A DNA stretch of 64,000 nt from Hormiphora californensis. Its lineage: Eukaryota; Animalia; Ctenophora. This document shows, one piece after another, positions 29,901-62,884 of the stretch. Under the pieces are notes generated by a model. It searched no databases and was not told where the DNA came from. It was given only the letters and a program-made list of their open reading frames with translations. Numbering within the stretch: the stretch's first letter is position 1; each line of letters begins with the position of its first letter. A program made the position numbers and the translations under genes. The stretch is taken from the NCBI GenBank assembly GCA_020137815.1, contig CM035359.1, forward strand, positions 5,022,001 to 5,086,000, given 5' to 3'.

Positions 29901-32900
29901 ATGTGGGAGCTGCTACAGGTAGACAAGGTACGAACAGAGCTCTTCAAGCAAAAATCTCAGCGATAATTCTAACTGATTTTTTCTGCTGGGTTCCGTTGAG
30001 CATTGTTTCATTTCTGCACCTCTCTGAAGCCATAAATGCGTCAACTTGGTATCCCTTCTTTTCCATCCTCATAATCCCCATCAACTCGGTGATCAATCCC
30101 TTGCTGTATGATTCTACTTTCTACTTTGGTCTCTTTTGGGGGCCGGTACAGTTTTTTGGACGAACTGTGAATAGCCTCATAACGGCCCTCCAGACTTCAA
30201 ACGAAATCGAACCGGTTGAAGGAACTCTACCTCACCATGAATCGGCGCTTTGAATGTTGTATGTGATTAACAAATCGTGTTCTTATAACAAGCAGTCATT
30301 AGAAGTCAGACGATACGTCTTTTTGGATTTCTAAACAGAGACCGTTGGAATCCCAATCTATTATAATAACTGTCACAATATTATAGACGTTAAAATTGTC
30401 AGCACTCGAGGAAGTCACTATCCCATAAACAATTATTGTTGATTATGTAAAGCTATACTTATAAACAGATACATCAAGCTAATATATGCTATCTAATGTT
30501 TACAAATCTATCAAGCTAATATATGCGATCTAATCTAATGTTGACGTAAAATAATGTTTATGCAACAAGCTGTAAATGTATCAACTGTATCGAATTAATT
30601 ACACTGCAGTACCTACTGTAGTAAAATTCAATAAGCTTTTTTTCTTGTTAATAATAATAAAACATATAATGTGTGAGAGAGAATAATGGTTGGTTGTCAA
30701 CTAAAAAGCCGTGAGACTTGGTCAGATGAGGAAGACACAAATAACTTGAGAATTCAGCCCAATAAAGCACTTTTAATCAATTAGTTAACTAAATACTTGG
30801 GCACGTCGCACAATCCCCTGTACGTAGCGCCAAACTAAATACTAATAATTTTCTTACCTTGCATGATCACTTTCATGGTAGGACTTGTTTTTGTGAGGGT
30901 CTGTTTAGGTAGGTGCCATGTAATAACCGTCTTGTAGTCCACATTCCTCTCACTATCATTGGGGAGAAAAAGTTAAACAACGTGATGTGTGACAAAGTGG
31001 TTAAGTAGTATGTGACAAAGTGATGTATGACAAAGTGGTTTAAATGTTACAAAGTGGTAATGTGACAAAGTGGTTAGTATTTGGCAAAGTGGTTATGTGA
31101 CAAAGTGTGGCCATCCCAAAGTGGCCCGGTTTGACAAAGTGGTTATATTAGACAAAGTAGAGGGTGTGACAAATTAATTACCTGTACATAATCTGGCTAT
31201 CTGTGTATGTGTCAGAGTCGGAGCTAGCTCCAGACGTTGTGTCAACTGAAGAGGAGTCAGCGTACCAGACGTAGTCGCTGAAAAAAGGGAACAAGCTAAT
31301 GATTGAACCCTGTCAAAACTGTGACAATGATTATACAGTCGGACCCCCATTTACTGGGTTGCTCGGGGAAAATGGTTATTGCCCTGTAAATCAGGGTCTG
31401 ATTTTCCATAACAACTCACTAGGTAACAGCGACTCCGCTAACAACGTTATTGTTGCTCGTCTGAACGGTGAATGTTCCACCGTAACCAGAGATAAGAGAT
31501 GCCGTTACTCCGCTGTACGTGGCGTGGTGGCTCTTGGCGAAGGTGGGCGCGACAACGTCTGAAAAAAGTGTGGTGGAATGGGGATTAATTAACTAACAGT
31601 GCGGTAAGCCCGAGCTTGAGTCGCCTGACACTGTGTCCGTATGAACAATTCAAGTCCGAACTGTGGTAAATCTTGAGAGGGACAGTGTAGCTCCTATCAA
31701 ATACATACCGTATGAGTTGCCCATGGTGATTCGTCCCTCCCAGTTATTTCCCTCCGAGGCTGGGAACTCAACTATACAAGTATACACCTAATGTGGGGAG
31801 CAAGTGCGTTACTAAGGGCGTTACTAAGGGCGTTTCTAAGGGCGTTACTAAGGGCGGCAGTTACTAAGGGGGGGGGGGTTACAGGTTACTTACTAAAGCA
31901 TTTACTAAGAAAATAACATGATCCCCTGCTGTCAGAGCATTGGCCTGACAGATCCCCCGGTAGTTACAGTGCTGCTTGTAGTCGTATTACCGTAATGTAA
32001 ATACAGTAAGGAGACACGCACGTTGCATAACGCACGGCAAAAAGTGCATGTGTTCAGCATGTACTAGCGCCCTGATTGGCCACGGTTGCGCGTCGTCTTA
32101 CTGTATCTCAGTTTTCCATTACCGTTTTCCCACTACTGCAAGCGACCGTGTTACCTTGTGAGTGGCATATCGGGCTGCATTAGGATTCTTGATTGCCAGA
32201 GTGTAAGTCTCTACATTATCAGTTATTGATTTCTTGGAGGTGTAGTCAGCGTTACCGGTGGTTATCTCAGCACTATCTGTGGTGGGGGAGAGGGTTTAGT
32301 AGATCATGAGAGATGGAGCTTATCATAATACTCAGGAGCTGAAAACATCACAAACCAACTACCCAGGGCGGCTCTATAAGCGATCCATCCCTAATTCTCC
32401 TACCCTCTACCACCTCTGATCGGGATAAATATGAGTGCCATTAGAATCCTGAATCCTGATCATCAGATCTCATTCATGCAGTGAATGAATAATGATACTA
32501 TTACAGTCGGACCCCGATTTAACGGCACCCTCGGGGGGAAGGGTTTTGTCCGCTAAATCGGGTTCAAATATGTATCAAGTATAACTTACTGAAGTACCAT
32601 CGTGTCTGGGCGCCATCGTGATATGAGTTGTATCTGCACGTGATCTCGATATCAACACCCTCCGCATAGTGGACTGTATCATCAGGCAATGCCACAACAC
32701 CTGTCTCCATGGAGATGATATTATATTAGGATAATTTATTGGTCAATGTAGTTATTTAATTCAGTAGATGCAACCAATATAATATTATGATTAGATTAAA
32801 AAAAATGATAATATAATATTACATTTAACTGGAAAGATAAAATTACTCACGTTTACTGTAAAGAATGACTTCATTCGATGTTATCGTTTCCACATTAGCA

Positions 32901-43978: not shown

Positions 43979-46900
43979 CACCATATTTAGGCATAAATCA
44001 TGATATATGCGTCAATATATTCATCACATGATGGCGGTGGTGGCGAGTATAAAACTTACAGAAAAGTTCCCAAGCTGTGTCCTGTGTAAAGGAACCAGTC
44101 CAGGCGTAATCGTGGGTAATTTCACACTTAAAAACCTTGTTGGCCGCTTTCATTGCCTTCGCTCTGACTGCATCAACGTGAAGATACTCCTTGCCATTCT
44201 CTCCCGTCGAACTGCCGGGAAAGGGATATTATATCGGCTTGGGGAGACGGTAATATGTGTTATTCATGGTAATTTATGGTAATATGTGACCCTCTTAACT
44301 TCTAATTCCATAACTGAGATTCTGCTAAGTGTCGCTGCAGAATATTACAATACATTTCGGAAATTATATTATGAAAATAAGGACACACAACGCTCATTGG
44401 CAAAGTTTATTCCACTAGAGAATTAGGCCCACTTCCATGCTACCACCTCAGCTGTTCCTCTCTTTGAAAAAAAAAAATAAATGCCCCGGTTTAATCAACA
44501 AATATATATTGTATATCAACTTACTAAGCATAAACCTCGTTTTCCTTGTCATAGTGGTCAGCGTCAAACCAGTACGTTTCATCCTCAAAGGTCCACCTGA
44601 GAGGGTTATGTAATGCCTTTTATGGATGTATTGTAAGCGAAGATATTATCTATATCTTGTTCCTATATAATATTGTAAACTTCGATATACTCAAATATGT
44701 GGTAGTATCGTGTATAAATCTATTATACCAAAACTAATTAAAATTAGTAGGCCGGAAAGGTTGCCCTATGATTTGAGCTACCTTTGCCACCGTAACATTC
44801 ACGGGCTACAGGCAGGGTATAGATACTTCGTCTATATTCAAAAGGGAATGTGCCGGTGCCAAAGGTAGCTCAAATCATAGGGCAACCTTTCCGGCCTACT
44901 AATTTTAATTAGTTTTGGTATAATTTGCATCATTTTTGGGATTTTTTATCCATTTAGAACAGGTAAAATGACGTCACGATGTCATGACGTCACAATTAAA
45001 ACGTCATATCATCGGGATTACCTAGATAAAGATACTGACCAAGTTTGAGATCGATTGGATGAGATTTGAGTCCGCTATGGCGAAAAAACCCATATCGTCA
45101 TATCTATTTTTAAACAGTCATAACACTTCAGACGCGTTTTAAGACCCTTATACATGTAGTTTTGAAAATTCGCGATATAGTTTCTGAAAGTTTAGACAAT
45201 TCTCTTTCCATGATATAGTCTTCGTTTTTCGATTAGAATCCGTCTTCCGGGTGTAAATTGAACTCAAAGAATTTTGGTCAGAGTCTGAAAAATGACGACT
45301 TTAAGACGTTCTGTAGGACGTTCCTGGCGTTGAAAAGAGACCCCATATCGACTAATGCACACACATCCAGTAGATCTACCAGCTGTGAAAACGAGAAGTT
45401 TCTATCTCTTTTCGTTTGGCGTGAATATGGTTTACAAAAAGCGTCTCTCCTACGCGCGCGTATGCGCGTGTTACACTGAATTTATGGCAAATGGGACATA
45501 TCTATAACTTCGGTTCCAGATGAGATAGAGACTTGAAATTTTAAACTTGAGTCAAAGACCCCAAGCCGGGTATACATTCCAAATTTCAAGTCAAATGGAT
45601 GAAAGGGAGCCACGCTATAGCTCTTTTTCTTACTTGAAATGTAGACCAGCAATGAGACTAGAATCAATGCCAGATACTGAACAAGTTAAAATACTGTCTA
45701 CTTCCTCGTAAGTTTGGGTCATCTCGGAGGTCAATTCTGCAAAAATAATAGATTTTAAACATAAGTGTGGAGGCAAGTTGCCCGTGAAATAACACCTGCA
45801 GCTGCCAATGAAAATGGAACCTAAGTTGAGAACATGAATCATGCTGCCAGACCAAACCCAAAGAACCGAGACAAACCCCGCAAAACCAACCTCCAAACCA
45901 AACAGCCAGCAAACCTCCACCAAACCTCCAAACCTCCACCAACCTCCAAACCTCCAACAACCTCCAAACCTCCACCAAACCTCCCCCAACCTCCAAACCT
46001 CCAAACCTAAACGCAACCTAACCACACCTAACTCCGCCAAACACCAAGAGATCCGGAACAGCGGAAAGACCGAGACCCTCCGTCCACTAAGATGGTAAAT
46101 GTGGACACTCGCCAGAAACCGAGACTCAGATCGAACTCATCAGCCGTAAACCTGACACCGTTTCGGGGCTTTAATTCGGTACGGGTACACAAGGTACTAA
46201 GTCAGGCGCCCCGGCAATCTCGATAATCTGAGACCACCGTTCGATCTATACCCAGTTGCCCGGAATGAATGTGTCGACTGGGGTCCCTCACTGCCTCCCC
46301 CTTTGACAGGTTTATGACAGTAAGGGTACACCCGTCCAAACACACACTCCACTGCGAGGGCGAGTCTCAACCACTTCACTGCCTCCACTACTCCACATTC
46401 CTGTACTCCCACTCCTTCTTCGCCGAATGGAAGTAGATCCACATGGAACAGTGAGCAGCCTCTTTCCCCGTATCCTTAACCAGCTTCCTAAGACCCCTCC
46501 CTCTAAACCCAAGACGAGAAGCTGCTCTAACCAGACTATCCGCCACCTGCCCTCGAGCCCCAACCTCTACCGCCATATTAAAACACCTCCACCCATTAGA
46601 CTCACACTCCCTCTCAAGGTCCGTGTACCGTTCAATCTTGAGAGTATGGGCATCCCCTATTCTCTCTTCTGCAGGGCAAGTGAGCTCCCACCAGATCACC
46701 GTCTTTACCTCTCGCGAGAAGACAACAAGATCAGGCCTTAACCTGGTCTGGGCGATCTCCGCCGGGAACTTGAGCTGACTTCCGATGTCAGAGAGGACAA
46801 CCCAGTCCTTAGCGCCTGACAGGATCCCACACCCACTAACCCTCTTCTTCCCCTTCTTCTTCCCCTTCTTACCCTCTGCAACGAACTCGATACTCCGGGA

Positions 46901-49900
46901 CCCTCTCGTGGACCTCGATGCAGCGTTAGCACGGACCTCGCAGTGAAACTGTACCTGCTCGCCTATCTGCCGCAGGACCTTGTCATGCCGCCACCGGTAT
47001 CTCCCCTGACCCAGAGCCACCTTACAGCCGGTTAGAATATGGCGAATACTCCCTGGAGCATCACCACACAGCTTGCAAAGACCGTCTTCCCCTTCCTTCC
47101 ACTTCTTTGCAAGCGACGGCACGACAAGGGTTCCATAAACTGCTCTTAGGATGAAGCCTACCATTCCCTCCTTCATGTCGAATAGGCTTCTCCAGCTTAA
47201 CTCCATCGAGACCACATCCTCCCTCCAAGCTAACCACATCCCCTGAACCTCTAACTGCATGGTCTCTACAGTCCTCACCTGGTCTAACCTCTCTCGAACT
47301 CGCTCAATCACAACACCTCTCCTCTCGCTGTCCGACAGCTTCTCCCAAGGCTTTCGCCACTCACCGAAGCCAATCCCTGCCCTAGGGTATGGAGGAATCA
47401 TACCGCGGACTGCATCACACCGAACATCACTAACTGCCTCCTCTAACTCTTCCCCTGCTTTCCACTTCCTACCAGACCTGACAAGAGGCTGAAGCGCTAG
47501 GATAACTTCATCCTGTGAAGAACTGTAAGTCTGCTGCAATCTACACTTCTCCACTTTCCAGGTGTCAAGGAGGCTGTTCAACGGGAGCCGTACAGAAGAC
47601 TCCGAGTTGAACAGACAAAGTCTGCTAAGAGTGTGACCTCCACCCAACCACTTTCGCAGGAAACTGTTTACTGACTGTTCCCAGGCTGCTACGGTGGTCA
47701 ACGGGGTGTCGTAGATTGCCAGAGGCCACTTCATCTTAGGCAGAACAAGGTACTGGTAACCCCAGCACTTCTCCAAACCCGATAATCCACTCTCGTCCAA
47801 CCGTCCCATCCACAACTTCAGCTGGCGAGCTGTTTCCTCGATGGCGACGGTGTCCCTTACATCAGCCCGAATCCACCGACCAAGGAACTTAATCGGCTTC
47901 TCAGTAACGTTCGGGATCGTCTCACCCCCAAACGACAAACTCACCGACTCTACCACCTTACCTCCCTCCAACACCAGGGCCCGAGACTTAGATGACTTAA
48001 CAGTAAATCTCGCCCACTCCACAAACTCTCCAAACACCGACAACATAACTTGCATGTCACTCTGTGTGGCAGTGACGAGGCAACTGTCATCCATGAACAG
48101 CTTCAAAGGAGGGACCGGTGTGCCATCTTTCACGTAGGCCACACTACGCGGTATCTTGATGGCCAGATACTCCGATACCATGTTCATACACAGTACAAAC
48201 AAAATAACGGAGATGACACACCCCATGAATATTCCGACCTCGAACTGTTGCCAGTTCGATGTTACCTCCCTTGAACTGAACCTACCGAAGACTCCAGAAA
48301 AGTAACTCAGGACTATGTCCACGATCGGCTGTGGAACTCGATAGAACCGGAGAGCCTTGACGATCAAGAGGTGAGGCACGGCACCATAGGCATTCGCCAA
48401 ATCCAACCAGACCACCGACAGGTCCCGCCTCATAATCCTTGCGTCCTTCAAGGTCTCCCACATAGCCCCGAAGTGTTCCACACATCCACTTACCCCGGGA
48501 ACACCACCTTTCTGGATCCGCCTATCCACGTACCCATTCTCTACCACAAACTCTGTTAAGCGCCTCGCAAGTGTCCCTAGGTAGATCTTTCCCTGGACGT
48601 TACCTAAGGAAATCGGTCTACCAGTCGCCGGAGTGAAATCCCCTTCCCCCTTGGGAATGTACACTCCTTCAAACCAACGACAGTTTTCTGGATATCTCCG
48701 GTACTTAAAAGCAGACTTATTCAAGTTCCACAAGTTCCGGGAAATCTTAGGACACCGCTTGTACACCAAGTATGGGATGGCATTGGGACCTGGTGCACTT
48801 CTAGCGCGAGCCTTCTCCACCACCGACTGGTGTTCCTTCCAGGAGATAGGCTTCATGTTGAAAGCGACCTCTGGTTCAGGTGCAAAGTCTGGGAGCCCAG
48901 CTAGTACCCCGAGGGCCTTCCCCCGCTCAGGGTCTCCGTAGGTAGTCTGGAGATGTTGATCTAGCTGGTCCTTCGAGCAGCGCAGTTCCCCAACTGGACT
49001 CGGCTCTAAGATTTCCTTCACAGCTTTGAAGGGGCTCCTCTTGAACAGACCTCTCTGTCGCTTCCTTTCTCTCTCGTTCTCTCTCCTTCTCTCTGCATTC
49101 CTCAGCTTGGATAACTGGGAAGCAATCTCCCTCACCTTACCTTCCCAGCCTACCTTCCTCTCCGCCCTCACAACTCTCCTCTCCGCCACCAGGGACTCAA
49201 TCAACCTACACCTCCTACTCCGAAAGGGTTCCTTGCGGCCACCCTTCTTCACCTCCACCAGACCAAACATCTCTAGGCCAACCTCATACACAACCGTACA
49301 ATGAACATCCATCTTATCCTGGTACAAACAGCCAGCCTGCCCATCCCTTAACCTTTCAGAGACCGAATCCTCGTACTCTTTCCATCTACTATCTGTCCCC
49401 GATGGCCAGTTCACTCGTCTATTCCTTGCGGTAGGTGGTACTAATTCAGTGTTCATCTTCAGTAGGGCTGTGGTATCTTCAGCACTGTGGTTGTCGACCG
49501 GGCCAAATTCCCCACCCGAGCTTACAGGACCAGGTCCCTGCGTTGCCCCATCCACCTTCAATAAACACTTCATCTTCCCCCGATGAATATTCCTACCTCG
49601 CTGACTCGTGAACTCCTTCCCACAAACACATCTAAACGCCTCCGCGTTCACTTCCTTGCTCTCACCTCCAGTTGTCGAGGGCACTCGACTGTAATCCTTT
49701 GCTCGTGTCACAGGATACTGGAGGGGTTGCCACCCGGTCTGGATTGATTACCCAGGCACCCGTCTCTAAATAAAGACTCCTGGGGCTTGGGGAAAGCAGG
49801 AGGCACTGCACCAGGGCGGCTGTGGTAACAGTATTGTATAACCCCATCACACTCTCCCCTGACGGATCCGCCGACGCCGGAACCGCCACCGACACCCTGG

Positions 49901-50427
49901 CTGCTGACCAAGGGCACCATCTGTTCTCATCAGCCGGGCCTTACCCCGGAGGTAGCTGGACTATCCCAGCAGTCGAAGGTGAGAGTAAGTTGAGAACATG
50001 AATCATGCTGCCAGACCAAACCCAAAGAACCGAGACAAACCCCGCAAAACCAACCTCCAAACCAAACAGCCAGCAAACCTCCACCAAACCTCCAAACCTC
50101 CACCAACCTCCAAACCTCCAACAACCTCCAAACCTCCACCAAACCTCCCCCAACCTCCAAACCTCCAAACCTAAACGCAACCTAACCACACCTAACTCCG
50201 CCAAACACCAAGAGATCCGGAACAGCGGAAAGACCGAGACCCTCCGTCCACTAAGATGGTAAATGTGGACACTCGCCAGAAACCGAGACTCAGATCGAAC
50301 TCATCAGCCGTAAACTTATATCCATATTTGGGCATGTGATAACACCATATTTGGTACCTACCGAATGTGTCAACAGTAACAGTTTCCTTCCAGTTGTCGA
50401 TAGTGGTACTGCATGTAAACGTCTCAT
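1224..50427 (-). CDS. Large multi-exon type I membrane protein (multiple Ig-like domains, sushi/CCP-like modules, FN3-like region, TM helix, short tail); 5' end not found in the window; host of nested genes
   Basis: Exons joined by hand with GT-AG boundaries and consistent phase, in transcription order: 50362-50427 (DETFTCSTTIDNW), 45634-45736 (ILTCSVSG), 44525-44596, ~44060-44211 (VFKCEITH), ~43651-43825, further exons at 42.2-43.5 kb (GDTATLTCVA, GDTVALSCTAG..KWG), 41883-42034, 41621-41740, 41321-41450, ~41113-41176, ~40921-41037 (ILTITG..FRCSA), 40181-40310, 35012-35085, ~34720-34821 (TYTCTL), two exons at 34.3-34.6 kb, ~33858-34012 (SLNISSVTVTEEGKYTC), ~33523-33645 (AVFKCRA..YQW), six more at 31.2-33.4 kb, 30858-30952, 25334-25414, 25132-25205, 24962-25070 (GTVIDILCARKYLL..YTC..LPAC), 13569-13675, 8196-8376 or 4780-4960, 7373-7495 or 4251-4373, 3955-4049, 3659-3736, 3395-3500 (DLSANMTYYV), 2678-2818, 2201-2388, 1787-1909, 1461-1597 (TM: LAVVFGLIGLVIIVLVIVYCIV), 1224-1290 (KIFGKNHAETSAVFKNPIGGY*). 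Confidence 0.85.
1927..2070. repeat. 21-bp intronic tandem repeat (GTTAGGAGAGAGAATGGGGGT)
   Basis: Read directly. Confidence 0.9.
2878..3170. repeat. 66-bp intronic tandem repeat rich in GGTAACC/GGTTACC
   Basis: 22-aa periodicity in spurious ORFs 2655-3146 and 2734-3180. Confidence 0.88.
4340..4571. repeat. 46-bp tandem repeat (5 units) spanning a host 3' splice site
   Basis: Unit GGGTTAGTGGGGGTTAACACAGTAGTACTTGAAGGAGTCATCTATA. Confidence 0.92.
5446..6326. mobile_element. Foldback MITE with ~390-bp inverted arms and a TA target duplication (Tc1/mariner-like), inserted in a (TACA)n tract of an older repeat
   Basis: TA|CCGTGTGCGGCAAAA...TTTTGCCGCACACGG|TA; mirror ORFs 5606+ and 6165- in the track reflect the arms. 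Confidence 0.9.
7118..8599. repeat. Near-tandem duplicate of ~3990-5155 including two complete host exons and part of a third
   Basis: Identical 69-aa track ORFs at 4802 and 8218. The copy has scattered SNPs, a ~110-bp extra segment (~8080-8190) and many 1-bp deletions in 7118-7372. Confidence 0.9.
7462..7872. repeat. Same 46-bp tandem repeat (about 9 units) in the duplicated block
   Basis: Same unit, more copies. Confidence 0.92.
8934..12760 (+). CDS. LDLa-repeat class-A GPCR (GRL101/RXFP-like 7TM, no LRRs), interrupted by two apparent frameshifts; pseudogene or assembly error; nested in host intron 8377-13568
   Basis: Signal-peptide ORF 8934-9140 shifts frame near 9115 into ORF 9127-11805 (LDLa motifs CDLVDDCGDGSDEEEC, CDRKIDCKDFSDEC; TM1-5; FYGNDPVC). 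It shifts again near 11770 into 11714-12760 (TDFCCWMP, PLNSVLNPVLY). Colinear with the intact paralog at 59198-62245. Confidence 0.85.
11990..12735 (+). repeat. Coding tandem repeats (12-48 bp units) forming the acidic C-tail of the first LDLa-GPCR
   Basis: PEDVTDVAPEDA and PKDAPGVPSEDATNVA repeats. Confidence 0.9.
13826..24792. repeat. ~11-kb satellite, 34-bp monomer TTAGAGATAAGGAGGGTCAAAGTGGGAAAGTTTC (~320 copies) with ~1-kb higher-order repeats, filling host intron 13676-24961
   Basis: Period of 34 read directly; diagnostic variants recur at ~0.83-1.28 kb spacing. Confidence 0.97.
26723..26986 (+). repeat. (TTTCTC)n then (TC)n microsatellite directly upstream of the second LDLa-GPCR
   Basis: Read directly. 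Confidence 0.97.
27005..30253 (+). CDS. LDLa-repeat class-A GPCR (GRL101/RXFP-like, no LRRs), 2 exons (27005-29591, 29715-30253); nested in host intron 25415-30857
   Basis: Signal peptide, LDLa motifs (CDGHPDCNNGGDE, CNLKADCGDGSDERNC, CDGVVNCRDFSDEC) and 7TM with TDFFCWVP and PINSVINPLLY. A 123-nt GT..AG intron at 29592-29714 joins ..DNAG-IPSSTVHFYGNDGVC in frame. Confidence 0.92.
33718..33829. mobile_element. 112-bp hAT-type MITE
   Basis: TIR CAGGAACCGACCGAA...TTCGGTCGGTTCCTG, perfect 8-bp TSD GTAATTCC (33710-33717, 33830-33837). Confidence 0.92.
35578..35812. mobile_element. Near-palindromic ~235-bp MITE with TA ends
   Basis: TAGTAGGAGCGCTTAGATCACGTGCAAAAGTCG ... CGACTTTTGCACGTGATCTAAGCGCTCCTACTA. 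Confidence 0.85.
37862..38325. repeat. GA-rich low-complexity / (GA)n tract
   Basis: Read directly. Confidence 0.9.
38482..38950. mobile_element. MITE with TTAA target duplication and AG..CT termini (Kolobok-like)
   Basis: TTAA|AGTGAGAGTGGACCGAATCAGAATTGGACAAGTTTG...CAAACTTGTCCAATTCTGATTCGGTCCACTCTCACT|TTAA; ~110-bp imperfect arms. Confidence 0.88.
39014..39831 (+). CDS. Small secreted F5/8-type C / F-type-lectin-like domain protein, 3 exons (39014-39047, 39282-39593, 39668-39831); nested in host intron 35086-40180
   Basis: Phase-1 GT-AG joins give MLVFLTAVLAKVASGG..FAIDRNFSTMY..LLLTLAQECRVSDVKIY..NCGSIDVND..RSCQNILASMVKL..LVEVYVYG..TGK*, which has the AID(G)N / V..V.I / EV.VYG pattern. The exact start exon is uncertain. 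Confidence 0.65.
40315..40818. repeat. Intronic minisatellite of 12-bp-type units (GTGTTTAGGGA/GTTTGAAGA)
   Basis: Read directly. Confidence 0.9.
42355..42570. repeat. (AAAC)n microsatellite forming most of a host intron
   Basis: Read directly. Confidence 0.92.
42920..43000 (+). other. tRNA-derived SINE head or tRNA pseudogene
   Basis: A-box TAGCTTAGTGG and B-box GGTTCAATTCC at tRNA-like spacing; acceptor and anticodon stems are poor. Confidence 0.55.
44722..44924. mobile_element. ~200-bp MITE-like inverted repeat (~70-bp arms)
   Basis: ATTATACCAAAACTAATTAAAATTAGTAGGCCGGAAAGG... / ...CCTTTCCGGCCTACTAATTTTAATTAGTTTTGGTATAAT. Confidence 0.8.
44965..45625. repeat. Dispersed repeat; an inverted, diverged copy lies at ~5270-5400 plus ~6345-6860, split by the MITE
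   Basis: Reverse-complement matches, e.g. ACCAAGTTTGAGATCGATTGGA / TCCAATCGATCTCAAACTTGGT and ATCGTCATATCTATTTT / AAAATAGATATGACGAT. Confidence 0.75.
45822..46151. repeat. 330-bp direct repeat, 3' copy relative to the retrotransposon ORF
   Basis: TAAGTTGAGAAC...CAGCCGTAAAC, apparently identical to 49986-50315; contains a (CCTCCAAA)-like degenerate array. Confidence 0.95.
46388..49711 (-). CDS. Retrotransposon polyprotein: N-terminal Zn finger, reverse transcriptase, CCHC knuckle, PD-(D/E)xK restriction-like endonuclease
   Basis: CVCGKEFTSQRGRNIH; RT motifs GRPISL, QKGG, LDLANAYGAVPH, GIFMGCVISVILF, FMDD, KFLGR; CKLC..HILTGC; RWRHD; RPDLVV..WELTCPAEE..KIERY. No internal stops. Confidence 0.95.
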   Translation of the reverse strand: MTRAKDYSRVPSTTGGESKEVNAEAFRCVCGKEFTSQRGRNIHRGKMKCLLKVDGATQGPGPVSSGGEFGPVDNHSAEDTTALLKMNTELVPPTARNRRVNWPSGTDSRWKEYEDSVSERLRDGQAGCLYQDKMDVHCTVVYEVGLEMFGLVEVKKGGRKEPFRSRRCRLIESLVAERRVVRAERKVGWEGKVREIASQLSKLRNAERRRENERERKRQRGLFKRSPFKAVKEILEPSPVGELRCSKDQLDQHLQTTYGDPERGKALGVLAGLPDFAPEPEVAFNMKPISWKEHQSVVEKARARSAPGPNAIPYLVYKRCPKISRNLWNLNKSAFKYRRYPENCRWFEGVYIPKGEGDFTPATGRPISLGNVQGKIYLGTLARRLTEFVVENGYVDRRIQKGGVPGVSGCVEHFGAMWETLKDARIMRRDLSVVWLDLANAYGAVPHLLIVKALRFYRVPQPIVDIVLSYFSGVFGRFSSREVTSNWQQFEVGIFMGCVISVILFVLCMNMVSEYLAIKIPRSVAYVKDGTPVPPLKLFMDDSCLVTATQSDMQVMLSVFGEFVEWARFTVKSSKSRALVLEGGKVVESVSLSFGGETIPNVTEKPIKFLGRWIRADVRDTVAIEETARQLKLWMGRLDESGLSGLEKCWGYQYLVLPKMKWPLAIYDTPLTTVAAWEQSVNSFLRKWLGGGHTLSRLCLFNSESSVRLPLNSLLDTWKVEKCRLQQTYSSSQDEVILALQPLVRSGRKWKAGEELEEAVSDVRCDAVRGMIPPYPRAGIGFGEWRKPWEKLSDSERRGVVIERVRERLDQVRTVETMQLEVQGMWLAWREDVVSMELSWRSLFDMKEGMVGFILRAVYGTLVVPSLAKKWKEGEDGLCKLCGDAPGSIRHILTGCKVALGQGRYRWRHDKVLRQIGEQVQFHCEVRANAASRSTRGSRSIEFVAEGKKGKKKGKKRVSGCGILSGAKDWVVLSDIGSQLKFPAEIAQTRLRPDLVVFSREVKTVIWWELTCPAEERIGDAHTLKIERYTDLERECESNGWRCFNMAVEVGARGQVADSLVRAASRLGFRGRGLRKLVKDTGKEAAHCSMWIYFHSAKKEWEYRNVE
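49986..50315. repeat. 330-bp direct repeat, 5' copy relative to the retrotransposon ORF
   Basis: Same sequence as 45822-46151 at an offset of 4164; both copies yield the same 85-aa spurious ORF in the track. Confidence 0.95.
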
Positions 50428-50795
50428 CTAGGAAGGAATAAAATAATGATCGAGAAATTGCAATAAATACTTTTAATACTTTCACTTTCGACCCGAAGAA
50501 AAAAAGACAAAAATTAACCATGCTCATTTTTTTTCATGCTCGGAGGTGGGCATGCCCGTATAATTTAGGTTTGAGGCATCGACCTGAAATTTTGTAGGCG
50601 TGTCCTCCTAAAAAAATAGTATATATACTGGTTCCCTCGTTATATAAAAATAGTTTTTTTTAAATCAACTTTTTAATATCTGATTTTTGACAATTTTTCA
50701 TCAGCATTTTAATTTTTGCATCGTGCTAATTTTCAAGAAATTTCCAATATTTCTCAAAAACCGCGGTAATATATCATGGATGTATTCCTATAATA

Positions 50796-51684
50796 ACGTG
50801 TTGGGCAAAAAAAATGTCCCCCCTAGACTAGCATAGTTCCAGAATCCAGATATCGTAGAGCTCTAAAATTTTACACAGTTACTCTATGGAACAAATAAAT
50901 AAGTTCCACAAAATTTCAGACTTTTAGCTCAAAGTTCATTTTTTTGATCGGAATGAACATTGTTATTCATTCCAAAAAACATGATTTTTCGGTCCAGAAG
51001 CCAAGTAATTGTCTTTGGCTCTCGATTTTCTTTCAAATGCGACCAAGAAAAGCCAAAACGGACAACCACAAGGCACACAGTGGTCATGTTTCTGACAGTT
51101 AGTCAGGTCATGTGATCCCCATCGAATCGTGAGTTGCTAATCAGGCTTAGTCTAGTGGGGAAGAATCACGTATCACAGTCGCTAATGAGGGATGTGTATC
51201 GAAAAAGCGACATGTGATTCGGGAGCACTTGGGTAAAGAGGCCACTTGTTAATGAGCTTCGGATCTCATGACCAATAGTCATCGTCATCCCTCATTAGCA
51301 GCTGTGATACGTGATTCTCCACCATTAAGCCTGATTAGCAATTCTGAATAAATTACACGATTCAGTGGGGATCACATGACCTGACGAACTGTCAGAAACA
51401 TGACCACTGTGTGCCTTGTGGTTGTCCGTTTTGGCTTTTCTTGGTCGCATTTGAAAGAAAATCGAGAGCCAAAGACAATTGCTTGGCTTCTGGACCGAAA
51501 AATCATGTTTTTTGGAATGAATAACAATGTTCATTCTGATCAAAAAAATGAACTTTGAGCTAAAAGTCTGAAATTTTGTGGAACTTATTTATTTGTCCCA
51601 TAGAGTAACTGTGTAAAATTTTAGAGCTCTACGATATCTGGAACTATGCTAGTCTAGGGGGGACATTTTTTTTGCCCAACACGT
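50796..51684. mobile_element. Foldback MITE related to 5446-6326
   Basis: ACGTGTTGGGCAAAA..CTAGACTAGCATAGTTCCAGA ... TCTGGAACTATGCTAGTCTAG..TTTTGCCCAACACGT; shares GAATGAACATTGT and CATCGTCATCCCTCATTAG with the 5.4-kb element. Confidence 0.88.
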
Positions 51685-52424
51685 ATATAGGTATCTTATG
51701 CTTGACAGCGAGCGAGAATTTTTAAGGCGGTATCAGATGCAGATATCACTGCATGTACAATATGAATTTACGCCCATTATAGGCCCATAATGGTGCGTCT
51801 CGCATGTGTTATCTCGATTTTCAAAAACATGCTAGAGACATGCGGTTTTCACTAAGGTTTTAGTTAGCCATCAAGGAGTATCCTTTTTGTGAAAATCCCT
51901 GCTGTTCTCTCCCACTTTAACATGATTGTTGTACGAAAGAGAGAGGGAGAGAAAGTCATGACGATGAAAAACCTGCTGTGGCAACCATCATGTAACTCGA
52001 TCCTATAATAAGAGTTCCGAGTTTTTCGCCACACGAGTTCCATGTTGTTGATCTATAACCGAACCCTCACAGAGAGACGGTGTGAGCCATGACACATTCA
52101 TAGAGTTCAGCTGTCTATGAAACGGTCAGTTTGTGTAATGTGTAGCTCACTTGCAGTTCCTCATTTAAAGTATAGATATATCAGTAAACGACTGCACGGG
52201 ATTCGTCCAAAATGACCGAACTGGACGCCGGGATTTTCCTTAGATTTTATAGATCCTCCTAGATAAAAGAGTTTTGGTTTTCTAATTATATCTCCCTCTC
52301 TCTATCTCTCTTTCTCTATCTCGAGACGAATCCAACGCAACCGGAAGTTCCTGAGTAACTGCTTCTTGCTCGCATAGGATAGCATTTTGTATTTGTTTTT
52401 TAATATCGCAACTTTTCCAGGATT

Positions 52425-53513
52425 ATGGACGCTGATACAACGGACTTCTTTGAAAGTTTTCAGGCTAATTTGGCCTCCAAGGCACCCCCTGATGACCCAC
52501 TGAGAATCAAGATCGGAGAGACAGTGCTTACAATTATAACTCTTCTCACATGTATCATTGGTCTACCCATTGCCACTCTTCAGGGTTACTTCCTATTTCG
52601 TGTTGCCAAGGAACGGACCCTCAGCTATAGTATTTACCGTGCAATATGGCTAGTGGATTTCTTGGTCATCTTGTGGAATATCCCTGTAGCAACAGTTTAT
52701 GTGAGGGGCCGACAAACAACAGACACGGCCTTTGTTCTAAGCGATGGTCTAGGTTGTGCCCTGTGGACAATCGGATGGAGATCGCTAATTCGGGTGTCTA
52801 TCTTTAACCTCGCAGTGCTTAGTATAACCAGGACCTACTCACTGGTTCGACCATTCTCCCAACCACCCAGAGTTCGAGTTGTCATGGCAACCATTGTGGT
52901 GTATAGTCTGCTGGTCCTAACGCAGTCCACCATCCCTCTCTGGTTCGGGGCGACATTTAAGTATATGTGGTGGTATGTGGAGTGTGTGGAGTCCTTTTCC
53001 AACACCACCACTTTAAACTCCAACTCGTACTATGGAGTTTACTGGAATGCAGCCGAGTTTATCCAATTTATTGTTCCCATGGTAGTGGTGTTAGTGAGCT
53101 GTGGGGTAACCATAGCAACTTTGTGGTCAAATAGGGCGGCGTCAACCTCCAGTGATATGATTCGAAATCAAGCTACAACAACCATCCTAGGTCTAACTGG
53201 GATTTACATTTTCTTTAACACCCCCGTTGTTATTTACTGGGTTGTGGCAGTAGTCAACACCAAACTACCCGATTCCAATATTTTGGCACCGTTTTTCAAG
53301 GTTTTTGATGGTCCAACGGATGGTTGGTTCATGTACTACCATCTGGCAAACTACAGCGTTAACTACAGTGTTGGGTTAAACTCCATGGCTAACATTATAA
53401 CGTGGAGCTGTAGGTCTCGTCCAATGAAGCTCTGGATTGTTAGCTCTGGTAGATCAGTGAGTAGGAGGATCAATGTGCAGCAGCAATGCACAGCACAAAT
53501 CTATAGAAGCTAG
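52425..53513 (+). CDS. Intronless orphan rhodopsin-like (class A) GPCR, 362 aa
   Basis: Seven hydrophobic segments, TM3 Cys (GCALW), TM3 end LAVLSITRTYSLVRPF (DRY replaced by TRT), TM6 IFFNTP, TM7 LNSMAN. Confidence 0.88.
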   Translation: MDADTTDFFESFQANLASKAPPDDPLRIKIGETVLTIITLLTCIIGLPIATLQGYFLFRVAKERTLSYSIYRAIWLVDFLVILWNIPVATVYVRGRQTTDTAFVLSDGLGCALWTIGWRSLIRVSIFNLAVLSITRTYSLVRPFSQPPRVRVVMATIVVYSLLVLTQSTIPLWFGATFKYMWWYVECVESFSNTTTLNSNSYYGVYWNAAEFIQFIVPMVVVLVSCGVTIATLWSNRAASTSSDMIRNQATTTILGLTGIYIFFNTPVVIYWVVAVVNTKLPDSNILAPFFKVFDGPTDGWFMYYHLANYSVNYSVGLNSMANIITWSCRSRPMKLWIVSSGRSVSRRINVQQQCTAQIYRS

Positions 53514-54832: not shown

Positions 54833-55825
54833 TCAATACCGCATTACCTTTCTCCGGAATGTTCTGGCATTCTTTGTAAAGGTGAGGTAGAGGAGTCCGT
54901 TGATGAGGGAGGCTGTTGTTGGCCACAAATTATGCCCCAGATAAGATCCTATAAATGGGGTCATTAAAGTATCCAATTCCACCGTAGATTGCATGTCCTT
55001 CAGCCTGTAGGCGAATGGCTTAGCCACTGCAGAGTAAATGAAGAAACCCATTGAGACAGTGCTATTGAAGTTAAGCAGGGATATCTTGATTGTGCCATTT
55101 AGAGAGCGCTTCTGCCCACCAATGGGATGCTTGTAAAGCCATATCAGGTATGCGAGTGTTAAAAACGTTGAAGTCATGCCAAGAAAATTAATCAAGGCAA
55201 TTGATGAGAAGAGGAGGTAGACAAAATAAAATGGGACGTTCCCCCTCGCGAGGGAGGGGAAATCAATACCGAAGACAGCAGGTTTCAGGGTGTATGGCCA
55301 GCCCTTGCTGACCAAGTAGGCTATGTAGAGGGGTGGGTAGAGGATAGAAAACATAGTGCCCAGCAGGATGTATTTTAATGGTAAGTGTGCGAAGGGCCAC
55401 CGAATTTGAATGAATCGCACGGTTGCGAAAATGGCTGTTATCATAATTGGAGCATACTGCAAAGTATAGACCATTAATGATACGGATAGGTCGAAGATAC
55501 TTGGAGTGTTACTTTTTGTATACAGAATATAGTAGTCCTCGCACAGCAAACCCGAAATGTTAAACGTGAGGAAATTCTCCATACTGCAACTGGGATCTTT
55601 GTCAGTCCAAAGGGCGGATAGTGCTACCGGAGAAAGGACTACACTGGAAAGCAGGTCTGAGCATGCAAGGATTATGTAAAGACATTGAGAAATGGAATAT
55701 CTTTTGTAGTAGTTGTGCCGGATTACCATTGCGTTTAAAGGGGCAGATATCAGCGTCAAGACAGCCAGAATCTGGAAGACACCAAAGTCAGGAAAGGTTG
55801 TTTTTCCTTCACTGAAAATTGCCAT
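54833..55825 (-). CDS. Intronless orphan rhodopsin-like (class A) GPCR, 330 aa
   Basis: TM1 PLN, TM2 LACSD, TM3 end IFATVRFIQIRWPF, TM7 SLINGLLY; about seven hydrophobic segments. Convergent with 52425-53513. Confidence 0.85.
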   Translation of the reverse strand: MAIFSEGKTTFPDFGVFQILAVLTLISAPLNAMVIRHNYYKRYSISQCLYIILACSDLLSSVVLSPVALSALWTDKDPSCSMENFLTFNISGLLCEDYYILYTKSNTPSIFDLSVSLMVYTLQYAPIMITAIFATVRFIQIRWPFAHLPLKYILLGTMFSILYPPLYIAYLVSKGWPYTLKPAVFGIDFPSLARGNVPFYFVYLLFSSIALINFLGMTSTFLTLAYLIWLYKHPIGGQKRSLNGTIKISLLNFNSTVSMGFFIYSAVAKPFAYRLKDMQSTVELDTLMTPFIGSYLGHNLWPTTASLINGLLYLTFTKNARTFRRKVMRY

Positions 55826-56055
55826 AGTTGTCTGAAAGGCATGTGATTATCTGCATTATTGTGTCATGAATGATGTTATCAAACAGTCAAACACAATGTT
55901 TAAAAACTAGTAGTCGACTGTATAAAAGCATAACATATTAACATAATATAAAATAAATTAATAATATGTATTACTATTCAATCACTCGTTGTATTTACTC
56001 GTTGTATTTATTCGTTGTTTATGCTTGTATAACATATTTACATGTATTTTTTAGC

Positions 56056-59197: not shown

Positions 59198-62100
59198 TTA
59201 ATTAGCTGTGATGACTGGTCCAACATCGTTGAACTTGAACATCATTTTGCAGAAATCCAAAGCACCACTGAAGATCTCAATGTTGTAGAGCAGTGGGTTT
59301 ATAACGGCATTTATGGGCAGAATTGTAAGGGAGAAAACCTGGTACCATGGCGACATATCGACCACCTCGGCCGTGTGGAGGGCACAAGAAATCAGAAAGG
59401 GCATCCAGCAGCAGAAATCTGTGACGCAAACCAGCATAATTTTCCGGTTAAGTCTCGAGGCGAGGTTGCTTCCCTGTGCTAAGTTGTTCTGGGTTACCAG
59501 CACCCCAATGACAGTATGGCAAACTGCCACGGTTAGGAAACAAACCAAATGTAGGGATATGTTAAGCCACACGAACGTCACCTGTGGGTCATCGGGAAGG
59601 ACAAAGAACTTGAACAGACAAACCGGATCATTTCCATAGAATGACAGCTTCCTGTGCTGTACTCCTCCGTTATCTGTAGTAAACATGCTTCTCACAATAC
59701 TCCTGATCCTCGCCCAGGAGAGGCCAGTCTCGGATCTGGTGATCATCCTGGTGCCATGGTATCCCTGGATAATCGCCAGGAGCTTCTCTTTTGTCATCAC
59801 TCCCAGGAAGAGCTGAGTGGCATCTTCATAAGTAAGCCCGTTTACAAAACCGTCCTCAAAGCTCGAAATAATTGGGGTAACCGCACAACTTACTGCTATA
59901 CAAATTATAGCGATCACCATAACAAAAACCTTTTTCTTAAACTGCTTGCTGATATCCTTGGACCTCCGGTAATGTAGGCCACGGGTAGTTCCCTGAAGCT
60001 TGAATAGACTGACTACAGCCATGGAGAGAGACGTGATGGTGGTGCCTGTTGTACTGATAACCCCAATGAGCTCACAAGGCCAGCTGCTAACCCAAGCTAG
60101 CTGCTTCTCGCAGAAAGTATCTTCTTGGGCCCAGTGGAGTGTGACGAGGATGAGAAGATACAAAGATGTGAGTAGGTCCCCCAGTGCAATGAGCGTGGAT
60201 ATAACTTTGTTCACAAATATACTGTCCTTCTTTGCTGGCTCTCCCCAGTAGAGACTTTTAATAATCTGAAGGCCACTCAACACTGACCCGAATATACCCA
60301 TCGCCATTGCACAAACCATGATACCGGTTTTTTCAATCGACTTCCGATGACAGACACTGTTGCATTCGTCAGAAAAATCAGGGCAGTCTATAATCCCATC
60401 ACACATTTGACTACGTGCTATGTAAATACTGTTTTCTTGGCATTTAACGCTACTTTCGCAGTTCTCTTCATCTGACCCGTCCCCACAGTCGTCCACCAAA
60501 TCACAAACCTTGGAAAATGGTATACAAAGGTTAGTGTTACATGCAAAGAAATTATTGTGATAGCCGTGCCTGTCTTTTTCCACAACGGTGACCCCATGCT
60601 TGGCAATGGAATACCGAATATTCTTTATATTTCCACAAGACGAGTGCATGATTGGTTTATCCAAGGGACACATTTTGTTACCACACTGCCCACTACAACT
60701 TCGATATACGTACTGCTCCCCATAGAAGTAGCGACAATCCTGCTGAACCTTTGAGAGGACAAGTTGAGTCGTCAAGGTTTTCCCAAAAAATTCGTAAAAT
60801 GGATGTATGAAAGACTGTGTGGTACACCCGTCACCCGTCAGTTCCCTTAGGGTTTCCAATCCTTTTTGGCACCATCCACTCCGTACGATCCGAGTGTCAC
60901 CTTCAACGGTTTCAGTCAAGGCTGATTGAGTCACGGTTGGTTTTAAGATCTCGCAAACTTTTCTTCCGCACGTCGCTGCAGTTGCACAAATATCTTCCAG
61001 CTCGAGGTATTCAAATGGCTCCTCCGGTCGACAAAAGAAGACGTCCCTACATTGCCCAGTTCTCCTGACCCTTTTTGTTGATCCTGTTCCACATCTCTCC
61101 CAGCTGAAGTCCTCGTCTTCTCCTCCTACACAATCAACAATTCCATCGTGGACCCAGTTATAGGGAATTGGTAGTAAATTTTTAACCTGAGTCATCCTCC
61201 GTTTACAGCTCCTTTTAGTGAGCCTACTGCAGGCACCGAGTGTCTCATCTGCGCCTGAGTTACAGTCACTGTGACCATCACAGAGTCGATGTTTGTGAAC
61301 GCGACAATGCCGATCAGTTGTAAAACATTTCCCATCTAGTTTGTCATCACACAAGATTGGCATGTCTCTCTCACATAGAATGTGTGTTGAAATGGTTGTC
61401 GTGAAGCTATCGACCTGGCATTGCCCCGCTACAAACCCCAAGTAGGAACAGTTGGTCTGATCATGTCCATTTAAACAGTAGGGAGAAAAGTCTACCCCAC
61501 TTGTAGCATCATGCCTCCTCAGATAGAAACACCGAGTTAAGTTGCTCAACGGATAATCGTAAAGTTTGGTGTCATAGCTAGTACAAACGCTTTCGAACGT
61601 TACGTTCGCGAGCTGGGGAAATTGGCTGGTACCTCCAAATAAGGCTAGAGATTGTGGATAGATCCCAAGATTAGGGATAACCACTCCATACGACAACCCA
61701 TTACAATCCAACTCATCGACACAATTCCAACAACTCTCCCAGTAATCACACTTCCCATCACATACCAATCGAGGTGGTATAGGGAAACTGTCCTGTGGAG
61801 ATCTAGGGTTGGTGTACTCTTGTATCTGATCTTCGTCTTCTGGACAATGCTGAAGCTCTTCAAACTGGTAGGCTTGTTCTTCAGCATTCCAGCACAATCG
61901 ACCACACACGGGCTGTGAATCGAACAACTGACTTTTCACTTTAATGTTGTAATTGCTGAAGAGATGCCTACTGGCCATGCAAGCCTGGTAAACAGCAGTG
62001 TCATTCGGACATAGTCGTGTTACCAGGTTGTTCCTTGTTCGCCGAAAGGAGAAGAATTTCGTGTAGGCATCAAATGTGATGTTCGAAGCGGGACACTGGA

Positions 62101-62245
62101 GTGTAAAGACACGCGAGTAAAAGTTTATACGCGAGCTTTGTTGCGAGCAATCGTTAGCAAGAAATGGACCAATTTCAGTTATTCTACAGTCGCTGCTGTT
62201 TGTTATACGGTGAAATGTAATCAGCACTGCTAGCAGCAACCACAT
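59198..62245 (-). CDS. LDLa-repeat class-A GPCR (GRL101/RXFP-like, no LRRs), intronless, 1015 aa
   Basis: Signal peptide MWLLLAVLITF, LDLa motifs (CDGHSDCNSGADE, CDLVDDCGDGSDEENC, CDGIIDCPDFSDEC), seven hydrophobic segments, FYGNDPVC, TDFCCWMP, PINAVINPLLY. Confidence 0.93.
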   Translation of the reverse strand: MWLLLAVLITFHRITNSSDCRITEIGPFLANDCSQQSSRINFYSRVFTLQCPASNITFDAYTKFFSFRRTRNNLVTRLCPNDTAVYQACMASRHLFSNYNIKVKSQLFDSQPVCGRLCWNAEEQAYQFEELQHCPEDEDQIQEYTNPRSPQDSFPIPPRLVCDGKCDYWESCWNCVDELDCNGLSYGVVIPNLGIYPQSLALFGGTSQFPQLANVTFESVCTSYDTKLYDYPLSNLTRCFYLRRHDATSGVDFSPYCLNGHDQTNCSYLGFVAGQCQVDSFTTTISTHILCERDMPILCDDKLDGKCFTTDRHCRVHKHRLCDGHSDCNSGADETLGACSRLTKRSCKRRMTQVKNLLPIPYNWVHDGIVDCVGGEDEDFSWERCGTGSTKRVRRTGQCRDVFFCRPEEPFEYLELEDICATAATCGRKVCEILKPTVTQSALTETVEGDTRIVRSGWCQKGLETLRELTGDGCTTQSFIHPFYEFFGKTLTTQLVLSKVQQDCRYFYGEQYVYRSCSGQCGNKMCPLDKPIMHSSCGNIKNIRYSIAKHGVTVVEKDRHGYHNNFFACNTNLCIPFSKVCDLVDDCGDGSDEENCESSVKCQENSIYIARSQMCDGIIDCPDFSDECNSVCHRKSIEKTGIMVCAMAMGIFGSVLSGLQIIKSLYWGEPAKKDSIFVNKVISTLIALGDLLTSLYLLILVTLHWAQEDTFCEKQLAWVSSWPCELIGVISTTGTTITSLSMAVVSLFKLQGTTRGLHYRRSKDISKQFKKKVFVMVIAIICIAVSCAVTPIISSFEDGFVNGLTYEDATQLFLGVMTKEKLLAIIQGYHGTRMITRSETGLSWARIRSIVRSMFTTDNGGVQHRKLSFYGNDPVCLFKFFVLPDDPQVTFVWLNISLHLVCFLTVAVCHTVIGVLVTQNNLAQGSNLASRLNRKIMLVCVTDFCCWMPFLISCALHTAEVVDMSPWYQVFSLTILPINAVINPLLYNIEIFSGALDFCKMMFKFNDVGPVITAN

Positions 62246-62884
62246 GTTTGTCTGAAATGAGAACAGGGGGATTGTGATATAATGTTATCGCGATAATTAT
62301 ACCCGTCAGCTCAACTGTACAACCCAGAGAGAATCTGAATAATAAAAACTCTGACAATCAAACATGAGGCTAATAAACAGTTATCCGATCACCCATCTGT
62401 CCACGAAATAAAAGAGAATAGGGTCAGACAAATGCTCTCAGAAAACAAAAAAAAAAGCTTTCAAAATAAATCTAATCAAATATTCAGGTAAAATGTATTT
62501 TAAAACTCGCGGCCGTGCCCCACAATATATAACTTGTCAGTTATGACACTTTCTCACAAAGGAATCTCGGCCGCTAATATAACCATTGTACAGTTGTGCA
62601 CCAATCGCCCGCATGTATGTATATTTTAATAATTTGTAAAATCTGCACCTTCATTTTGGAAATGGCTTTTTATTCATTTTGGAAATGGAATTTAAGTACT
62701 CTCAAACCACGTGACAAGATTTTAGGGTCACGTGATAACGTTATAGGTTGATACTCTCGCCCAATTCTTGAACATTCTCTCTAGTCTCTGAGAGTCTCTG
62801 TCATTAATCTCCCCCCGGGATTTGCCTTATTCGACCCTCCCTCCCCGCGCCCCAATAAAAAGGGTTTGAACAACACAACCCGGG

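Follow-up and report, generated by a model that had tools for sequence, protein, structure and literature searches.

In a 64,000-nucleotide stretch of the genome of the ctenophore Hormiphora californensis (here called the window; contig CM035359.1, positions 5,022,001 to 5,086,000), we identified an intact non-LTR retrotransposon, probably of the HERO clade, with a restriction-like endonuclease (RLE), in which a copy of the element's tail stands before its head. This 330-bp repeat is the element's own 3′ end, came with the element and joins the 5′ UTR at a fixed point. Further, a hammerhead core in the 3′ UTR is conserved among relatives together with covarying stems. A sequence-only reading of the window had noted two identical 330-bp repeats around an intact ZnF-RT-CCHC-RLE ORF, the absence of both poly(A) and a short target site duplication (TSD) and a normal intron of ~131 bp after removal of the insertion, and all of these observations held.

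The two direct repeats (45822–46151 and 49986–50315) are 100% identical over 330 bp with 0 mismatches, are spaced by 4164 bp and stop sharply at either end of both copies, all four edges abutting unlike sequence. The element is autonomous, measures 4.2 kb per unit and, like all features given here, lies on the minus strand. It opens with the front (5′) copy of its last 330 nt, a pseudo-LTR (49986–50315) recognized by its 100% identity to the rear copy and by the empty allele described below. The 5′ UTR follows (49748–49985); its start is the invariant junction 49985/49986, which a single bridging contig crosses in sequencing runs X1, X9 and X19, and similar 5′ UTRs occur in the related loci L001–L006. 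Just inside the 5′ UTR are two short hairpins with 8-nt purine-rich loops (49934–49973), found in the window and in L002, L006, L024 and L032. Such hairpins are repeated at the 5′ UTR start from ctenophore-type through fish-type elements and may mark a priming site, bind protein or aid non-AUG translation. A single ORF, 1119 aa from stop to stop (46388–49747), encodes an N-terminal zinc finger, the reverse transcriptase (RT), a CCHC knuckle and the RLE. Downstream lie a predicted hammerhead-like RNA in S-G-C order (46128–46247), recognized by descriptor matches and pairing tables, and the rear repeat (45822–46151), which is G/T-rich and lacks poly(A); its composition and the many unlike flanks at the equivalent place (49984–49989) identify it as the true 3′-terminal 330 nt. 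The whole insertion sits in sense orientation in a host intron (45737–50361, GT..AG), and its excision in silico leaves a GT..AG intron of 131 bp between exons that both read in frame. No poly(A) was seen in the element sequence, no TSD of 4–24 bp was found at the element edges and the repeat ends are not TG..CA.

As expected of a HERO-type protein, the ORF combines all four domains in one frame. RVT_1 (E 4e-15) was the only Pfam domain above threshold. The C40/C42/H55 zinc finger, the FMDD motif, the C891-x2-C-x8-H-x4-C908 knuckle and the PD...E...K endonuclease residues were aligned with the Tetraodon polyprotein Q7T1J8 (P0151), which is 36% identical to the ORF over 1101 aa; R2 structures score just 41–61 bits, far below P0151. 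We take P0151 to be Zebulon/HEROTn and Q76IN2 (P0182, a Takifugu RT) to be HEROFr. The best named relatives are Bolinopsis and Mnemiopsis proteins, with 59–61% identity over the C-terminal half. In a quick tree of this half (midpoint root, without named R2, R4, NeSL or CRE rows, and with loci of short matches left out), a 61-row clade with 100% SH-aLRT contained P0151 and P0182, and every motif-bearing locus fell into this clade with the two pufferfish proteins; one of them, L060, was marked motif-positive by eye and not by script. The knuckle spacing fits CX2-3CX7-8HX4C (PMC5678591). The first Met is residue 59, downstream of the conserved zinc-finger residues, and translation likely starts at a non-AUG codon, as is also likely for R2 according to the accessible part of PMC13580325. 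The habits of HERO elements were found as well, namely 5′ truncation, the absence of poly(A) and diverse 3′ flanks, HERO insertion being described as mostly non-specific (PMC4640811, in the portion available). Two other assignments were rejected: an LTR retrotransposon, because RVT_1 alone was above threshold, there is no TSD and the ends are not TG..CA, and a Penelope-like element by enzyme, because its hallmarks, a GIY-YIG endonuclease and a telomerase-like RT, did not apply. In a HERO-related group (proteins P0079–P0120), longer ORFs carry PF02902, presumably the Ulp1 protease family, and two loci of that branch (L041 and L074) have no hammerhead motif in the 3′ sequence examined. Viral contigs gave 44 pattern matches, none of them a relative, and prokaryote genomes gave just 2 short distant contigs, which were uninformative.

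The window also contains a very strongly GC-skewed 34-bp satellite (13829–24792), with 91% matches over about 318 copies, and a cluster of receptor-like frames (9088–11805, 27005–30253, 59198–62284, 52404–53513 and 54833–55846), three of which have cysteine-rich repeats and membrane segments (GPCR-like by eye) and one of which has Pfam 7tm_1. Long inverted repeats at 44722–44924 and 50796–51684 have very high depth in the compared runs and look like MITE-type transposons.

We compared contigs of four sequencing runs with positions 44500–51500 (5 of 22 runs were used overall). In run X5, from another sample of the same organism, a contig with a depth of 44.7 joins 45820 to 50336 via 35 other letters. 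This empty site has no repeat copy and belongs to a somewhat different allele, with an intron of 145 bp. Because the element is missing from this allele, the insertion is polymorphic; it is also recent, as the identity of the repeats had led the sequence-only reading to propose. Further, because the empty site holds no 330-bp copy, a long TSD of the R9 type and a host repeat, the alternatives that the same reading had named, are excluded. Compared with the empty allele, the filled allele has lost about 3–4 target bases, and the 5′ edge of its element shows 3 nt of microhomology to the target. Both window repeats share letters that are rare in the compared runs (45905 and 46100): the window has G at 45905, where A accounts for 610 of 610 depth in X1 and 41926 of 44201 in X5. 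This is as expected from one common template, and assembly polishing could also homogenise the two copies. No single run contig spans the whole window element.

The compared runs also showed how the repeat joins the element. Many unlike flanks begin at 49984–49989 (the equivalent of 45822) in X1, X5 and X9, so that insertion 3′ ends scatter over these positions while the junction of 5′ UTR and repeat is invariant in two organisms. In X1, all of the 5′ UTR depth listed at the junction (116) comes from one contig with zero differences; the contig that crosses it in organism B has a single difference and a depth of 556, beside 420 for the 5′ UTR. No inserted or deleted letters are listed for the junction contigs, and X5 has no contig on the 5′ UTR side in this comparison. 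One depth-2 contig of an RNA run also crosses the junction, but it may be DNA and was not counted as expression. As is usual with 5′ truncation, depth in X1 drops about tenfold along the element, from ~2000 (3′ end) to ~200 (5′ end). At 49984–50052, many contigs of X1, X5 and X9 share just the last 50–60 nt of the repeat (~90%) and then diverge, with a summed depth far above that of the 5′ UTR; they may be sister families or non-autonomous partners relying on a common 3′ signal.

The layout recurs in many relatives, from ctenophores to fish; those compared comprised 78 metagenome loci (L-numbers) in short-read consensus contigs that represent a dominant path and not single copies. A 3′ tail precedes the 5′ start in L001 (63 bp to the contig edge), L002, L003, L004 and L005, and circularly permuted contigs were found for the distant relatives L026–L029, L032 and L051. 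A scripted scan gave 18 matches to 5′ starts, of which 14 have a 3′ tail upstream; the others were L066 (spurious), L006 and L027 (tail-positive by other comparisons) and L043. L022, which the script missed, has a 5′ start without an evident tail upstream (judged by eye; its 3′ end is cut off). Only the window element and L005 show both flanks. In L005, the repeat is 1680 bp with one difference, and its front copy runs through the hammerhead motif into the ORF; L005 is a short-read contig, and this repeat may be an assembly walk. The length of the overlap thus varies across the family, which does not agree with a fixed LTR-like unit as the sequence-only reading had pictured it, and the tails upstream of relatives contradict its premise that R2-group elements such as HERO have no LTR-like repeats. 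Its suggestion that the repeat derives from the element, whose 3′ end has been duplicated in front of the 5′ end, is borne out by the invariant junction and by the many flanks that start at the repeat's 3′ end. The element is therefore a partial tandem that forms a pseudo-LTR; it works like Penelope without being a member of that group. In L023 (3420–3700), two elements only 68% alike (longest identical run, 27 nt) adjoin directly, the 3′ end of the first leading into the 5′ UTR of the second, and this joint reflects a heterologous jump, recombination or an assembly chimera. In L046 (1–94 and 3899–3992), a distant RLE element outside the HERO clade, the 3′ end assembles ahead of the 5′ end. 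The self-BLAST repeats in L035 were judged a host repeat, and those in L009, L016, L037, L042 and L063 local tandem repeats; none was taken for a pseudo-LTR. The pufferfish HERO element Zebulon reportedly occurs as partial tandems, a description said to go back to Bouneau et al. in 2003. Our literature searches, with most subscription journals and Repbase outside their scope, found no published description of a HERO partial tandem and nothing relevant on a ribozyme in HERO.

The structured 3′ UTR motif that the sequence-only reading had noticed is a permuted hammerhead core, which it had missed. Side by side, the 3′ UTRs show the order cut site, GAAA, CUGANGA (non-circular S-G-C). In the window, the 5′ strand of P0 lies at 46247–46239, the 5′ strand of the pseudoknot begins at 46212, GAAA is at 46164–46161, CUGAUGA is at 46143–46137 and the 3′ strand of P0 begins at 46136, with the predicted cut after 46180 (GUA). 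The front repeat starts 28 nt downstream of this cut, at the edge of the P1 helix and inside the motif, not right at its end as had been stated. The distance from cut to end is 358 nt in the window and 358–555 nt in the ctenophore-type branch, compared with 133 in L024. A descriptor of the motif gave 35 strict matches in 33 sources, all on the sense strand, compared with 3 in 3.1 Mb of shuffled sequence; with the cut-site filter off there were 38 matches, 36 of them with N-U-H. CUGANGA and GAAA served as search anchors, and the independent evidence is U16.1/H17 and position. Among 26 instances picked by the descriptor, U16.1 is present in all 26, N7 is free, and N7 and H17 vary as in hammerheads. 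Stem I pairs 1–3 and stem III pairs 1–4 form in 26 of 26 with several pair types, and in a covariation test uncorrected for relatedness, stems I and III, the pseudoknot and P0 each paired better with their own partners than in any of 1000 partner swaps. The motif thus has the core of an SGC hammerhead (CUGANGA, GAAA, A15.1–U16.1 and H17) between covarying stems I and III, but it differs in stem II, where the canonical pair 10.1–11.1 forms in just 2 of 26 instances. The strand preceding GAAA pairs upstream instead, forming the pseudoknot, and the strand following CUGANGA pairs with a different upstream strand (P0), which splits stem II over two helices. Such a permuted hammerhead would likely cut out unit-length RNA. 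Known hammerheads tolerate at most 1–2 inserted nucleotides at 10.1–11.1 in the accessible part of PMC10085705, and the split stem II may leave the fold inactive or acting otherwise. Folding of single sequences did not show the motif (z -2.84; 5′ UTR, z -0.21) because of the pseudoknots.

Of 58 loci whose sequence extends 200 nt or more past the ORF, 28 have the motif, and many of the 30 without it fall outside the HERO clade in the quick tree; L030, L060, L064 and L072 are near matches by eye. L005 contains two complete motifs with cuts 4365 nt apart. In L006, a member of the ctenophore subclade, the tail-to-head junction is present and no motif lies within its 328 nt of 3′ sequence. More broadly, the 3′ UTRs of L006, L007, L009, L013, L016 and L017 lack the permuted hammerhead in the sequence examined and have other conserved-looking structures without an Rfam match; replacement by another RNA is possible in this subclade. 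We took the structure in L006 to look twister-like, but this resemblance found no support and was dropped. Searches of the element, the motif and 15 related loci against Rfam yielded no relevant match, and a relaxed descriptor gave chance matches at window position 24952 and in the flank of L001.

With about even confidence, we propose that the front repeat, being part of the 3′ end copied for a second time, arose when reverse transcription overshot on a unit RNA that had been cut by the ribozyme and joined at its ends. A master copy in which one unit separates two complete motifs, the arrangement seen in L005, would be transcribed through, and self-cleavage at both motifs would then give a monomer that starts and ends at the cut. 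The monomer ends would be ligated, or else the helices of the motif would keep them together while the RT crossed by a template jump. The RLE would nick a non-specific site, and target-primed reverse transcription would begin internally, at the apparent 3′ end beside the 5′ hairpins. Most runs would halt early and leave 5′-truncated copies, and a few would go full circle and into the tail again. For the window copy, synthesis would have ended 28 nt before reaching the cut, and the 3 nt of microhomology would have served to join it to the target, with the loss of about 3–4 target bases; because its front repeat lacks the upstream half of the motif, this copy alone would not cut out a monomer. 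The empty allele, the diverse flanks, the clean junction, the shared rare letters, the 14 of 18 tails and the conservation of the motif are consistent with such overshoot copying. Among the mechanisms listed by the sequence-only reading, a pseudo-LTR strategy and a circular or read-through RNA include this one, whereas a habit of targeting its own 3′ end is at odds with the diverse 3′ flanks. Cutting, ligation and more-than-unit copying have been proposed for Penelope-like elements (PMC4209133), and the same circular logic for retrozymes (bioRxiv 10.64898/2026.07.22.740005), as far as the available portions of these sources go. Several results weigh against overshoot copying: pair 10.1–11.1 forms in just 2 of 26 instances, L006 has the junction without the motif, L023 joins elements only 68% alike, an outcome that a single circle could not produce, L022 shows a 5′ start without an evident tail upstream, and both flanks are seen just in the window and in L005, itself possibly an assembly walk. 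More tentatively, and with somewhat less than even confidence, we suggest that HERO elements in general may be autonomous LINE-type retrotransposons that replicate via ribozyme-cut circular RNA and internal-site target-primed reverse transcription, using an undescribed S-G-C hammerhead with a split stem II that has been kept from ctenophores to fish.

A partial tandem made from two templates has a lesser but substantial chance of being correct. Here, a linear RNA would begin in the upstream tail or at the junction and finish at the 3′ end, and the RT would jump from its 5′ end to the 3′ end (or a homologous tail) of the same or another RNA and copy a portion of it once more; the front copy would serve as a promoter, as in Penelope and HeT-A, and the RNA fold would be protein-binding, regulatory or only occasionally cutting. 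Such jumps could leave clean junctions, given that the R2 RT template-jumps in vitro, best with a 1–2 nt overhang complementary to the new template (PMC8857657), and the Penelope regulatory sequence sits in a pseudo-LTR made by a partial tandem (PMC2377424), both according to the parts of these papers available. Two templates would explain the heterologous tandem in L023 and the junction without a motif in L006, and the non-canonical stem II also speaks for them. However, ctenophore and fish elements alike retain all catalytic positions and an N-U-H between covarying stems, more than a simple binding site would require. The junction, too, is invariant while insertion 3′ ends scatter over 49984–49989, and 28 nt separate the predicted cut from the start of the front repeat, albeit in one case only. 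Overshoot copying and the jump between two templates may both operate.

We think it unlikely that a linear, terminally redundant RNA was copied once, the upstream motif having cut to give its 5′ end and the downstream motif having stayed uncut. Front repeats could then reach about 358 nt, and the 330 nt of the window lies just under this cut-to-end distance; but two identical motifs must behave differently, and the front repeat of L005, if the contig is real, passes the motif into the ORF. Very improbable is an origin from independent insertions, either of a truncated and a full-length copy made adjacent by self-targeting or with a long TSD or host repeat, because the unlike neighbours in L023 would fit it but the empty allele without a repeat contradicts its TSD and host-repeat forms, the 3′ flanks are diverse and both copies share rare letters. 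The least credible explanation is an assembly artefact, in which the assembly made one turn too many through a collapsed repeat family: most supporting loci are indeed short-read consensus and the window element is not spanned by any one run contig, but contigs with the junction came from independent runs, the empty allele carries both flanks contiguously, and a varied satellite of 11 kb is resolved in the window, which suggests long reads.

Textbook non-LTR elements copy linear RNAs by priming at the 3′ end and cannot regenerate a lost 5′ end. If our proposal is true, R2-group elements would, through the clade-wide tail-before-head layout and the conserved self-cutting core, have arrived independently at a route like that of Penelope, possibly by rolling circle, and a hammerhead that builds stem II out of two separate helices would add a new architecture to the known ribozymes. 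The intact, polymorphic copy would make the origin of partial tandems testable. An RLE enzyme able to prime on a template that is circular or starts internally would also be of interest for RNA-templated gene insertion.

Overall, the element resembles several known systems in part. Like members of the HERO clade, it has a single ZnF-RT-CCHC-RLE ORF, with 36% identity to P0151 over 1101 aa, and no target specificity, but it lies on a separate, ctenophore-type branch with a longer cut-to-end distance. Like R2, it has the RLE domain order, a likely non-AUG start and, as predicted here, a self-cleaving RNA that would process a read-through transcript; unlike it, R2 is rDNA-specific and, in the source portions available, has an HDV-like ribozyme at its 5′ end and not a 3′ UTR hammerhead, and R2 structures give 41–61 bits. 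With the type-SGC hammerheads (HRIMA-1 and variants, Eckert et al. 2023), the motif shares the block order, all core nucleotides and the short linker from stem I to stem II, but in those RNAs the strands beside CUGANGA and GAAA pair mutually, whereas in the window each pairs with a separate upstream strand (P0 and the pseudoknot). Non-circular S-G-C hammerheads are known, cleave and have an ordinary stem II; they come so far mainly from environmental RNA, and the main text of that report, in its accessible part, names no retrotransposon host (PMC10085705). Penelope-like elements likewise show a full-length copy after a 5′-truncated copy, a hammerhead in the repeated region and proposed circular, more-than-unit copying. 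However, they have a telomerase-like RT, a GIY-YIG endonuclease and minimal type I hammerheads, in contrast to the R2-group RT, RLE and S-G-C core described here (PMC2377424, PMC8557442 and PMC4209133, each as far as available), and, unlike them, the window element has no inverted copy. Finally, in metazoan non-LTR retrozymes, tandem units each with a hammerhead, the need for two motifs to begin a cycle and a circular RNA parallel what we propose for the window element, but the retrozymes are, in the available part of the preprint, non-autonomous and short with a type I hammerhead (bioRxiv 10.64898/2026.07.22.740005), whereas the window element is autonomous and has 4.2 kb per unit.
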